Shown one piece after another: positions 23,841 to 26,480 of a DNA stretch of 64,000 nt. The notes below the pieces were generated by a model. The model made no database searches and was not told the origin of the DNA. It saw only the letters and a list, made by a program, of their open reading frames with translations. The position numbers and the translations under genes were made by a program. This DNA comes from Eledone cirrhosa (lineage: Eukaryota). The stretch covers positions 28,148,001 through 28,212,000 of the forward strand of contig OZ024750.1 in assembly GCA_964016885.1 (NCBI GenBank), given 5' to 3'. Position 1 is the first letter of the stretch; each line of letters begins with the position of its first letter.

Positions 23841-24040
23841 ATAGGAAAATGTTCAAGACTTCGACGGCAGAGCTCGTGCAATTTCGACGGCTATTTCTGG
23901 ACAGAAATAGCCGTCGAAACGGCTCGAGCTCTGCCGTCGGGGTCTTGAAAATGTTCCTATTACCCACTCTACTATCCTAAGTATTGAGTACTCTGGTGCG
24001 TTATGGTCCACCTGGTTCTTTACCACACTTCCTTCGTTAT
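23841..24040 (+). mobile_element. Family A element, full hairpin
   Basis: Nested hairpin containing GAAAC-GGCTCGAGCTCTGCC-GTC, plus tail. Confidence 0.85.
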
Positions 24041-24419
24041 ATATATATATATATAGTTCAAGGAGACAAACAGACGTACAAAAAGTCTTCTTAGTTTCAC
24101 GCTTTATATTGGAAAGAGGAAAGAAAGTTTGACGTGTCGGGCTTAAGCCCTTCTTCAGGTGTACAAATAGAGACAGGATCACAATGGAGAAACAGAAAAA
24201 AATGTCTGAGTAAAGACAAAAAAAAAAAAATCGAAAATAAAGAGTGAAAACAAGAGAACCGTTAGGTAGTCTTGGTAACGAGTAGGAACACAAAGTGTGT
24301 GTGTGTGTGTGTTAGTGTCGTTATGTGTGTGAATGTATTTATAAAACTTTACTTTGATAACATTGATAGCATTTAGCCAGTATCGGCGAAGTCTTTCAAA
24401 TCAGGATTTCGACACCATG

Positions 24420-24645
24420 GCCCACTCAAGTAGAGAGTTAATGTTTACGGAGACTTCTGGATGTAGGATGTTTATCCGGGATTTATTGGGAGAATTTATC
24501 CAAAGACGTTTCGAATTTTATGGGGTGTGTTTTGGTGTAATGTTAAAGAGAGCGGGACCAGTTTAGGTGAAATAATTGTGCCGTATTGTTGCTATGAGAT
24601 GCGAGTTTGATTTTTGTTGTGGGCCGATGAGCACATCGCCCAAGC
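24420..24645 (-). pseudogene. Decayed 3' end of a CR1/L2-like LINE ORF2
   Basis: Minus-strand peptide pieces GPALFNITPKH, LDKF..IPDK and NSLLEW resemble LINE RT C-termini; frameshifted. Confidence 0.45.
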
Positions 24646-24854
24646 CTTAAGTGTACTTTATATAATTCATAAAGGAAACAAAACAAACACAGGAATGCAA
24701 AAATACACAGTTATATTAGATTCACGCTTGGATTATATATACATATATACATATATTATACATATCTCTAACGGATCGATAAAATATCGTTTCCTCCTCT
24801 TCCTGTTATTTACGCGCCGTGTTCAGGAATGCATCTTCGCGTAAAAAGTGAACA

Positions 24855-24907
<53 letters not shown>

Positions 24908-24911
<4 letters not shown>

Positions 24912-25090
24912 TGAGATTCTACAGGACTAGAACTGTTTCATTCATTAGAAATCATCAGGATTCTTGATGATTTCTAATGAATGAAACAGTTCTAGTCCTG
25001 TAGAATCTCATCTATATTAAAACTTTTATACTCTGCTATGTATTGAGTACCTTACTTACTGTGGTTACCTCCGATTCAACCCGGAATAAC

Positions 25091-25095
<5 letters not shown>
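24908..25095 (+). mobile_element. Family B TA-flanked fold-back element with hammerhead-like core
   Basis: (C/T)TGATGA-TTTC(TAAT)GAAT-GAAAC-AGTTCTA-GTC on both arms, and tail TACTCTGCTATGTATTGAGTAC. Other copies at 5405-5457, 25120-25310, 54048-54175 and 60520-60670. Confidence 0.75.
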
Positions 25096-25124
<29 letters not shown>

Positions 25125-25305
25125 TTAATATAGATGAGATTCTACAGGACTAGAACTGTTTCATTCATTTGAAATCATCAAATGATTTCAAATGAATGAA
25201 ACAGTTCTAGTCCTGTAGAATCTCATCTATATTAAAACTTTTATACTCTGCTATGTATTGAGTACCTTACTTACTGTGGTTACCTCCGATTCAACCCGGA
25301 ATAAC

Positions 25306-25364
<59 letters not shown>

Positions 25365-25393
25365 ATCAAAAGATGGTTAAAAGAGTTCCAAGT

Positions 25394-25462
25394 ATTTTAT
25401 TATGCGCATTTCAAAAACAAATATCATCATGGAATGATATCTGCGTTCTCATCAGATAAAAT
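25394..25462 (-). ncRNA. Type I hammerhead (GCGC-loop family)
   Basis: attttat-CTGATGA-gaacgcagatatcat..atgatatttgttttt-GAAA-T(GCGC)-ATA-ataaaat. Confidence 0.75.
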
Positions 25463-25734
25463 AGGGAGACATGATATGAAGCTTAAAAAACACTTGAGAG
25501 CAGTGAAGTTTTAAATCAACATATGAAAAGTAAACTAAGATGGATATATGAGATTGGGAAAAAAAATGAGGTGGGGAGGGGGGGGGGAGTAGGAAAAGGT
25601 AAGGAAGCGGAAGAAAAAAAAATAAAGGATGGTGGGGGAGGAGTATAAGAAGGAAGGGTGAGAGAGGAGGTGAAATGAGTGATGGAGAGAGAGAAATAGC
25701 CTTTACAACTGAGAAAACATTGTCTCACAGAGAG

Positions 25735-25780
<46 letters not shown>

Positions 25781-26057
25781 GAAAATCTCCTACATATATT
25801 CCCTCTCTCTATATATATTATCTCAGCGACTCTCATTGACCGCTTTCCCTGATAAATTGTAGTATCATACATTTTAAAATCTCTATAACTGTTACATTAA
25901 GCAACGTTTTTCTTACTCACACATTCTCTATTGAATTTATTACGTTTTCGCATTTTCTCATTATTAGGGTATAAATGTTAAACTTTCTCTTAGGTTAATC
26001 ACTACCTTGATTAAATCTTAACCATTTAACATCTCAGGGTATGTCATGTGTCATTAT

Positions 26058-26110
26058 ATTTTATCTGATGAGGACGTACTTTTGTACATCTGAAATATGT
26101 ATAAAAAAAT
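26058..26110 (+). ncRNA. Type I hammerhead motif, sister of the 5720 copy
   Basis: attttat-CTGATGA-ggacgtac(tttt)gtacatct-GAAA-T(ATGT)-ATA; 25930-26155 matches 5592-5815. Confidence 0.65.
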
Positions 26111-26150
26111 GTAATTGATAAAAAGAACATCTATTTTATTAATATTTGTA

Positions 26151-26222
<72 letters not shown>

Positions 26223-26283
26223 AAAAGCGTTATATATATATATATATAACGATTTTCCTATATATATATATATGTATATATAT

Positions 26284-26474
26284 ATAACGAAGGAAATGTG
26301 GTAAGGAACCAGATGGACCATAACGCACCAAAGTACTCAATACTTAGGGTAGTAGAGTGGGTAATAGGAACGAGTAGGACCCCGACGGCTGAGCTCAAGC
26401 CGTTTCGACGGCTAATTCAGTCCAGAATTAGCCGTCGAAACGGCTTGAGCTCAGCCGTCGGGGTCCTACTCGTT

Positions 26475-26480
<6 letters not shown>
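26284..26480 (-). mobile_element. Family A element
   Basis: Essentially perfect ~115-bp hairpin plus tail, reversed, between (TA)n. Confidence 0.88.

Follow-up and report, generated by a model that had tools for sequence, protein, structure and literature searches.

How does a repeat come to carry only the 3′ half of a hammerhead ribozyme, and why is that half mirrored on both strands? The question is raised by a stretch of 64,000 nucleotides (nt) of the Eledone cirrhosa genome (assembly GCA_964016885.1, contig OZ024750.1, positions 28,148,001 to 28,212,000 of the forward strand; hereafter the window), in which a repeat, here called family A, had been described from the letters alone as a retroelement end that snaps back on itself at each insertion. 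The sequence identifies family A as the 3′ terminus of a Penelope-like retroelement (PLE) encoding a reverse transcriptase (RT) with a C-terminal GIY-YIG domain. The explanation that best accounts for the observations as a whole, and which we consider probable, is that the hammerhead-bearing end of this PLE was inserted as two joined cDNAs whose inner ends are the 5′ ends of their RNA templates.

Family A copies are inverted stubs

Of the span 23841-26480, previously attributed to family A as a whole, only the outer copies belong to it, the interval 24039-26285 being occupied by two other families, B and C. As had been described, the copies at 23841-24038 (plus strand) and 26286-26479 (minus strand) contain GAAAC, a helix III with a GAGCTC loop, GTC and GGGGTC, lack CUGANGA, and have as their upstream part an inverted duplicate of the same element end. 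Positions within the element are numbered from the predicted cleavage site after GUC. In the first copy, the tail-less inverted arm (23841..23902, element sense on the minus strand) starts from an internal boundary that follows helix I and reaches back to about -40. Its tail arm (23901..24038, plus strand) comprises the helix II 3′ strand (23905-23915), GAAAC (23916-23920) followed by helix III, the predicted cleavage site after 23938 followed by the helix I 3′ strand, and the tail (23961-24038), the ribozyme assignment being taken from full copies. In the second copy, the tail arm (26286..26418, minus strand) extends from -35 to the tail end at +98 and the tail-less arm (26419..26479, plus strand) from -41, the A of an initiator-like motif, to +20, the tail-less arm being 6 nt longer at the inner end. 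The long stem noted earlier in these stubs is a product of the inversion: the 3′ strand is paired with its own inverted copy and does not form helix II, since the true helix II 5′ strand has a different sequence.

The window contains 16 family A clusters, none of which (0/16) holds the 5′ ribozyme half or an open reading frame (ORF). Genome-wide, exact searches returned 38,884 arms with the 3′ half and 16,516 fold-backs centred in loop II, with no match to the reversed-pattern control in either case; family A amounts to tens of thousands of copies in a host genome of 3.0 Gb. Arms were mapped in a sample of 1,064 kb, made up of the window, flanking sequence and scattered 10 kb pieces, which yielded 68 family A clusters, 44 of them two-armed. 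The window makes up 6% of the sampled DNA and yet holds 16 of the 68 clusters, the density being strongly uneven along the genome.

Fold-back centres lie at about 23901, 26419, 5242 and 11717, at the positions noted before, and junctions vary between copies, as expected of a mirror arm formed anew at each insertion. The outer boundary of the mirrored arm is nearly constant, at +20 in 29 of the 44 two-armed clusters and between +17 and +21 in 33; the other 11 are older, poorly aligning subfamilies. Subfamily variants are common to both arms, 12 diagnostic bases being concordant in 18 of the 19 scorable copies, versus 100 of 342 pairs when arms from different loci are compared. Such agreement fits one RNA, or two RNAs from one source. 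Of the sequence-only reading, the retroelement, the fresh mirror arms, the stubs without a 5′ half and the longer copies that hold it are borne out; the CUGANGA core, the snap-back at ribozyme hairpins and the fixed stop are not supported.

Evidence for a whole hammerhead in longer copies

The catalytic 5′ half absent from the stubs is present in longer genomic copies, in a form other than that anticipated. CTGANGA upstream of stubs gave 48 matches, and the 30 loci inspected proved to be junction by-products or chimeras with other families; CTGATGA strings at junctions were also considered as a mirrored catalytic core and dropped. The bases that recur upstream of stubs gave 1,447 genomic matches, many of which run for hundreds of bases into shared sequence. 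The whole ribozyme of family A is ordered as ACCCC (helix I), TTGANAA, G, the helix II 5′ strand, a loop of about 35 nt, the helix II 3′ strand, C, GAAAC, helix III, GTC and GGGGT. Its core reads UUGANAA, the C3-G8 pair being replaced by U3-A8, and because of this core, searches based on CUGANGA overlook a whole abundant family.

The whole type I hammerhead had 1,144 exact genomic matches (control 0), with all four bases occurring at position 7; this is about 3% of the 3′-half count, a rough ratio between different patterns. Two copies were predicted to fold into a three-helix junction (z -1.6 and -2.4). From 59 copies, 39 belonging to two subfamilies were aligned, near-duplicates and broken copies being omitted. 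Base pairing was found in 88% of cells (92, 93 and 78% for helices I, II and III), with compensatory changes at three helix II pairs; these copies are related, their core is partly fixed by the search patterns, and the shuffle control is not to be read as a probability. U3-A8 occurred in 33 of the 39 and U3-G8 in 3, positions 10.1-11.1 were paired in 38, and the cleavage triplet was GUC. Together, these features support, without proving, that the longer copies carry a complete variant type I hammerhead. An Rfam scan of the window gave no hammerhead family among the matches listed (150 of 292), which were mostly microRNA-like matches to (TA)n.

Related subfamilies in the same genome do have CUGANGA. 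In an older one (L311-L340 and others), a hand count over the 100 of 296 matches listed gave about 72 U3-A8, 11 U3-G8, 15 C3-G8 and 2 C3-A8 cores, some of the C3-G8 cases being junction artefacts or more distant families. Judging from these cores, a path from C3-G8 to U3-A8 through a wobble pair is possible.

A Hydra-type Penelope-like element

Long copies extend upstream of the hammerhead into the 3′ untranslated region (UTR) and an ORF for RT and GIY-YIG. At locus L192, a 546-amino acid (aa) open stretch with the YRDD and nuclease motifs lies 1.3 kb upstream of the hammerhead, and the same arrangement, identified by motifs, is found in other long loci. The protein P0001 contains CNCPDRSSC (a CxCX5C linker), CNLC before SEE (CxxC) and CKH after LLNKK (CxH); N-terminal motifs are RWR, where the Hydra clade of PLEs has RWK, and SDKTG, identified by visual inspection of the L149 DNA. 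A Pfam search with P0001 assigned no family, and a protein search returned 1,463 relatives with up to 58% identity, mostly without names. On both flanks of 29 of the 33 core copies, (TA)n was present. In the tandem copies of L149 and L206, the tail continues into the 5′ UTR and the ATG follows the cleavage site at a distance of 190 nt; the motif of this read-through from tail to 5′ UTR was found at 4 distinct loci. We file family A on these features as a putative Hydra-type PLE and not as a confirmed member of the clade; the label goes no further because the core is not the canonical CUGANGA and the assignment was made by motifs, not by a tree.

Classification as a non-LTR retrozyme (LTR, long terminal repeat) was rejected. 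Such elements are defined in the available text of bioRxiv 10.64898/2026.07.22.740005 by tandem head-to-tail units, each with a whole hammerhead, and the family A stubs are dispersed, head to head and without the 5′ half.

The 3′ UTR of the element contains a (TA)n run (L192:1855-1920), that is, its own target, at which some copies begin (L206:5218). GIY-YIG Pfam matches are abundant in the genome, with a family A stub in only 1 of the 20 loci inspected. Open frames unlike the family A protein occur at such matches at L155:4309-7122 (938 aa), L156:1988-4519 (844 aa) and L157:1775-5062 (1096 aa), a relative of 679 aa with about 40% identity lies at L204:243-2279, and L160:2058-5655 is a near-perfect palindrome of 3.6 kb. 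Several other PLE families look recent in this genome.

Two fixed outer ends and arms of unequal length

One end fell between +17 and +21 and the other between +94 and +98 in 33 of the 44 two-armed clusters, and none of these 44 short clusters (0/44) carried a tail on the mirrored arm. Among the 22 long inverted pairs examined, 21 likewise carried a tail at only one of their two ends; the remaining pair was unmappable. The tail measures about 78 nt, and +20 coincides with the base of the extended helix I in the predicted fold.

The two arms also differ in how far they reach upstream. Among 33 short core copies, the tail-less arm extended at least 5 nt further in 15 and the tail arm in 1, with approximate equality in 17 (sign test p = 0.0005); a hand tally of 21 long pairs gave a longer tail-less arm in 11, a longer tail arm in 7 and 3 unclear cases. 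At L192, the tail-less arm spans about 2.9 kb and includes most of the ORF, and the tail arm about 0.44 kb plus the tail. Tail-less arms ending near +20 also stand alone, at L036 and in the window at 22065..22109 (plus strand, between (TA)n runs and without a mirror), and an older-subfamily fold-back at 28655..28772 (strand unassigned) is tail-less at both ends.

Folding back is centred mainly on loop II, some 20 nt before the helix II 5′ strand is reached, and not on the ribozyme hairpins where snap-back had been proposed; in long copies the fold-back can lie at any point, even within the RT gene. The claim that the mirrored arm self-primes to a fixed stop fares no better, as the tail-less arm often has sequence that the tail arm lacks and also occurs by itself. 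The fixed +20 end is, for these reasons, better read as a priming site, and the asymmetry argues against snap-back because a snap-back arm copies only what the first arm holds. We infer that two cDNAs, likely primed at two fixed RNA sites from opposite target strands, were joined head to head.

Inner ends cluster at -41 and at the cleavage site

Tail-less arms ended between -33 and -46 in 24 of the 33 core copies, with a mode at -41 (8 copies), where lone arms also start, including the tail arm at 28844..28972 (plus strand, -41 to +98, without a mirror). Position -41 is the A of a T(T/C)AGT(C/T) motif within loop II, which we take to resemble the Drosophila initiator consensus. With T or C allowed at the second place, each column of T(T/C)AGT (positions -43 to -39) is conserved in 37-39 of the 39 aligned copies, versus 16-33 of 39 for the six preceding columns, and the motif lay outside the search patterns. 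It remains constant at -41 across subfamilies that differ elsewhere in loop II. In the tandem copies, the ORF starts 230 nt downstream of -41. These positional features suggest that transcription likely starts at -41, from an internal promoter within loop II; an internal promoter is also described as likely for Drosophila Penelope in the available text of PMC2377424.

A second class of inner ends lies at the cleavage site itself. Short junctions were searched in two subfamilies, the end of the mirror arm being allowed to vary between about +9 and a point just beyond the site, which gave 610 matches. For the first 30 of these, the end fell at 0/+1 in 15 of the mirror arms and in 15 of the direct arms, versus at most four at any other position, two long arms having been miscalled owing to mutations. 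A narrower search gave by hand count about 69 copies stopping at the site among the 100 matches listed. Many of these copies then carry 1-6 untemplated, mostly A/T bases. The class, which includes the window copy at 11698..11808 (plus strand; tail-less arm 11698-11717, ending exactly at the predicted site), amounts to a few percent of 16,485 intact 3′ halves and belongs to the same subfamilies. Its simplest source would be the 3′ product of self-cleavage, in which case these ends are likely an indirect trace of cutting in the animal.

Proposed ordered double priming and its alternatives

In the mechanism that we favour, both strands of a (TA)n target would prime cDNA at two fixed sites of one RNA, +20 and +98 being the RT start sites. 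The +20 cDNA would tend to come first, and the +98 cDNA would often be short because it must displace it. Inner arm ends would mark the 5′ ends of the RNA templates: with a start at -41, the mRNA would begin with a harmless half ribozyme, and an RT starting 61 or 139 nt downstream of the cap would run off and leave a stub, which would account for the excess of stubs. Self-cleavage would supply, as its 3′ product, the template of the +1 class, and read-through RNA left uncleaved would supply that of the long copies; short homologies and untemplated bases would serve to link the ends of the two cDNAs. A wider reading, to which we give somewhat less than even credence, holds that the genome records the RNA ends of the element, with transcription starting within the hammerhead so as to give an mRNA with a disarmed 5′ half ribozyme and an armed whole 3′ one, that hundreds of insertions were copied from the self-cleaved product and prove cutting by the U3-A8 ribozyme in the germ line, and that ordered double priming of one RNA underlies all two-armed insertions.

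Several observations weigh against parts of this model. A search of sequencing runs listed no RNA run with the element. Snap-back accounts just as well for the 17 near-symmetric short copies, and some of the asymmetry could be due to deletion from one side once a copy was in place. At -41, the cap signature is weak: a G precedes the A in 5 of 53 lone-arm loci among the matches listed, and the matching C is present in 9 of 40 fold-back arms (both hand counts). The ends in the cluster are spread over about 10 nt, and the motif bases double as the 3′ arm of a small hairpin (7 bp) predicted in loop II, so that both the cluster and the conservation of the motif could, according to this fold, result from pausing of the RT or from a constraint on pairing. 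At the cleavage site, exact CCCC-GGGG junctions (4 of 30) could stem from homology of 2 nt, one base beyond the site. None of the long copies examined showed an intact full-length ORF. In the available text on the Anolis Poseidon protein (PMC11167929), no reads end at the ribozyme site and cleavage is not needed, whereas family A has a genomic class ending there; nor does that protein show a strand preference between its two start sites, whereas the family A ends are paired one and one.

In the snap-back model, a cDNA primed at the tail end arrives at the template's 5′ end, folds back by way of a few paired bases, copies itself to +20 and is ligated, the asymmetry arising from later one-sided deletions. 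It would explain the subfamily concordance of the arms (18/19), the near-symmetry of 17 of the 33 short copies and the next base, which often matches between arms where both reach -41; self-priming has also been proposed for palindromic inverted junctions (PMC3846280, in the text available). We nevertheless regard snap-back as unlikely, since extra sequence, up to about 2.5 kb of it, is present in the tail-less arm of 15 of the 33 short pairs and 11 of the 21 long ones, since such arms occur alone (22065) or at both ends (28655), since +20 agrees with an RT start site bounding the tail in the published Poseidon data (PMC11167929, available text), and since the centres lie off the ribozyme helices save for 2 joins in helix III. 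A Helitron- or miniature inverted-repeat (MITE)-type DNA element with a fixed terminal hairpin, the outcome named beforehand as refuting the earlier reading, shares the inverted arms and AT-rich targets superficially; hairpin centres that vary from copy to copy, long copies in which the same end is attached to the RT and GIY-YIG ORF, and 5′-truncated copies of all lengths rule it out for practical purposes.

The double-priming model leaves room for other origins of the -41 ends, namely an RT stall at the loop II hairpin, nicking of the A/U-rich loop, or re-use of loop-cut hairpin RNAs from existing fold-backs. The breadth of the cluster (-35 to -46), its overlap with the predicted 7-bp hairpin arm and the weak cap signature speak for such origins, which we consider less likely than not. 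A stalling RT would already have traversed the stronger helices I, III and II. Arms of 61 and 139 nt end at the same place, so arm length is not limiting, the initiator-like motif is fixed at -41 despite differences in loop II between subfamilies, and the ORF begins 230 nt downstream in tandem copies. A split ribozyme acting in trans, in which a full-length transcript would contribute the UUGANAA core together with the 5′ strands of helix I and helix II so as to cut stub transcripts, is possible on structural grounds but appears very improbable from the arrangement of the copies: the -41 stubs do retain the helix II 3′ strand, GAAAC, helix III, GUC and the helix I 3′ strand, but in two-armed stubs the mirror arm locks these strands in a hairpin of about 60 bp, and template ends account for the stub ends without any function. 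A short non-autonomous master may have generated the two commonest short subfamilies.

Other copies and repeat families in the window

The remaining family A copies illustrate the range of junctions. At 5211..5350 (plus strand), the arms are joined within the naturally self-complementary helix III and overlap by 19 nt. Tail-less arms are combined with reduced tail arms at 22475..22585 (plus), where the tail-less arm is long and the tail arm lacks most of the ribozyme half, at 53876..54017 (plus; tail-less arm to -27, tail arm from +3 only), at 54609..54691 (minus; to -27 and from +58 only) and at 59563..59736 (plus; to -39 and from -16). The copy at 55656..55843 (minus) has a segment duplicated at the junction, and that at 61244..61437 (minus) is near-symmetric with its centre in loop II. 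Older subfamilies are represented by a copy at 39601..39720 (minus) and a fold-back at 63265..63448 (plus), and a related subfamily by a diverged tail fragment at 57937..57991 (plus).

Family B (24910-25093, 25121-25308, 54055-54174, 60516-60669 and 5405-5457) has the same mirror-plus-tail shape in (TA)n and a hammerhead with the canonical CUGAUGA and short helices, found whole with helix I in longer copies such as L054 and L227; the motif GTATTGAGTAC is common to family B and the family A tails. Family C (25930-26158 and 5508-5814) has CTGATGA near its end, with an inverted end copy at 5508-5586, and several further repeat ends in the window bear CTGANGA. Longer near-perfect inverted pairs of other families, at 16011-16324, 20590-20868, 29462-29866 and 53325-53763, are probably more insertions of the same kind.

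Significance and comparison with known systems

The type of element, the inverted one-tailed shape of its insertions and the U3-A8 core are already published. Our literature search, with subscription journals largely and Repbase wholly outside it, found no study in which the ends of genomic copies are mapped to the hammerhead site of a PLE or to a start within the ribozyme, and no application of twin priming to pseudo-long terminal repeats (pLTRs). In the available text of PMC8557442, PMC11167929 and PMC4209133, the inverted one-tailed PLE insertion and hammerhead cutting in vivo are open questions. Tens of thousands of independent junctions turn both into counts, in which snap-back and double priming are told apart by arm asymmetry and activity is indirectly indicated by the peak at the cleavage site. 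Ordered double priming, if true, would account in PLEs generally for both the inversion of the pLTR and the presence of a tail on one side only.

Endonuclease-positive (EN+) PLEs of the Hydra clade, as described in the available text of Craig et al. 2021 (PMC8557442), have an RT followed by GIY-YIG, a CxCX5C linker, CxxC/CxH, DKT and RWK motifs, (TA)n targets and a 3′ type I hammerhead, with an inverted 5′-truncated copy at the 5′ end noted for Penelope-13_HM. Family A shares the RT and GIY-YIG arrangement, the linker and Cys motifs, the targets, the 3′ hammerhead and the inverted copy. It differs in its UUGANAA core, long loop II and 5-bp helix III, whereas all 26 Hydra rows of file S2 of that study have CUGANGA and short helices II and III, and in its tail of about 78 nt, compared with 30-40 nt. 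The Anolis Poseidon protein cuts and extends both target strands in vitro and starts RT at two internal sites bounding the tail (Frangieh et al. 2024, PMC11167929, available text); there too, the hammerhead lies directly upstream and adjoins the ORF start.

Replacement of C3-G8 by U3-A8 is known in natural hammerheads, with in vitro activity cited from earlier work (Perreault et al. 2011, PMC3088659, available text). The Schistosoma Cercyon PLEs contain about 1,300 U3-A8 motifs, opposite-strand pairs being noted; as far as the available text goes, these motifs are minimal and of the dimer type, whereas family A has a full helix III (Cervera and de la Pena 2014, PMC4209133). Family A also has C3-G8 and U3-G8 relatives coexisting in the same genome.

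The head-to-head copy, junction palindromes and microhomology joins of family A are shared with the inverted pLTR and one-sided tail described by Arkhipova et al. 2013 (PMC3846280) and in PMC8557442, in the parts available. Arkhipova et al. propose self-priming (PMC3846280), whereas the arm asymmetry in family A favours two cDNAs. Compared with published inverted pLTRs, family A is also distinguished by its stubs ending inside the ribozyme, which make up about 97% of arms (a rough ratio). LINE-1 twin priming uses each of the two target strands as a primer on the RNA, and the resulting cDNAs are linked through microhomology, so that the 5′ part becomes inverted; there is no overlap between the pieces, and the position of the second site varies. 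In family A, by contrast, both cDNAs would cover the same RNA from two fixed sites.

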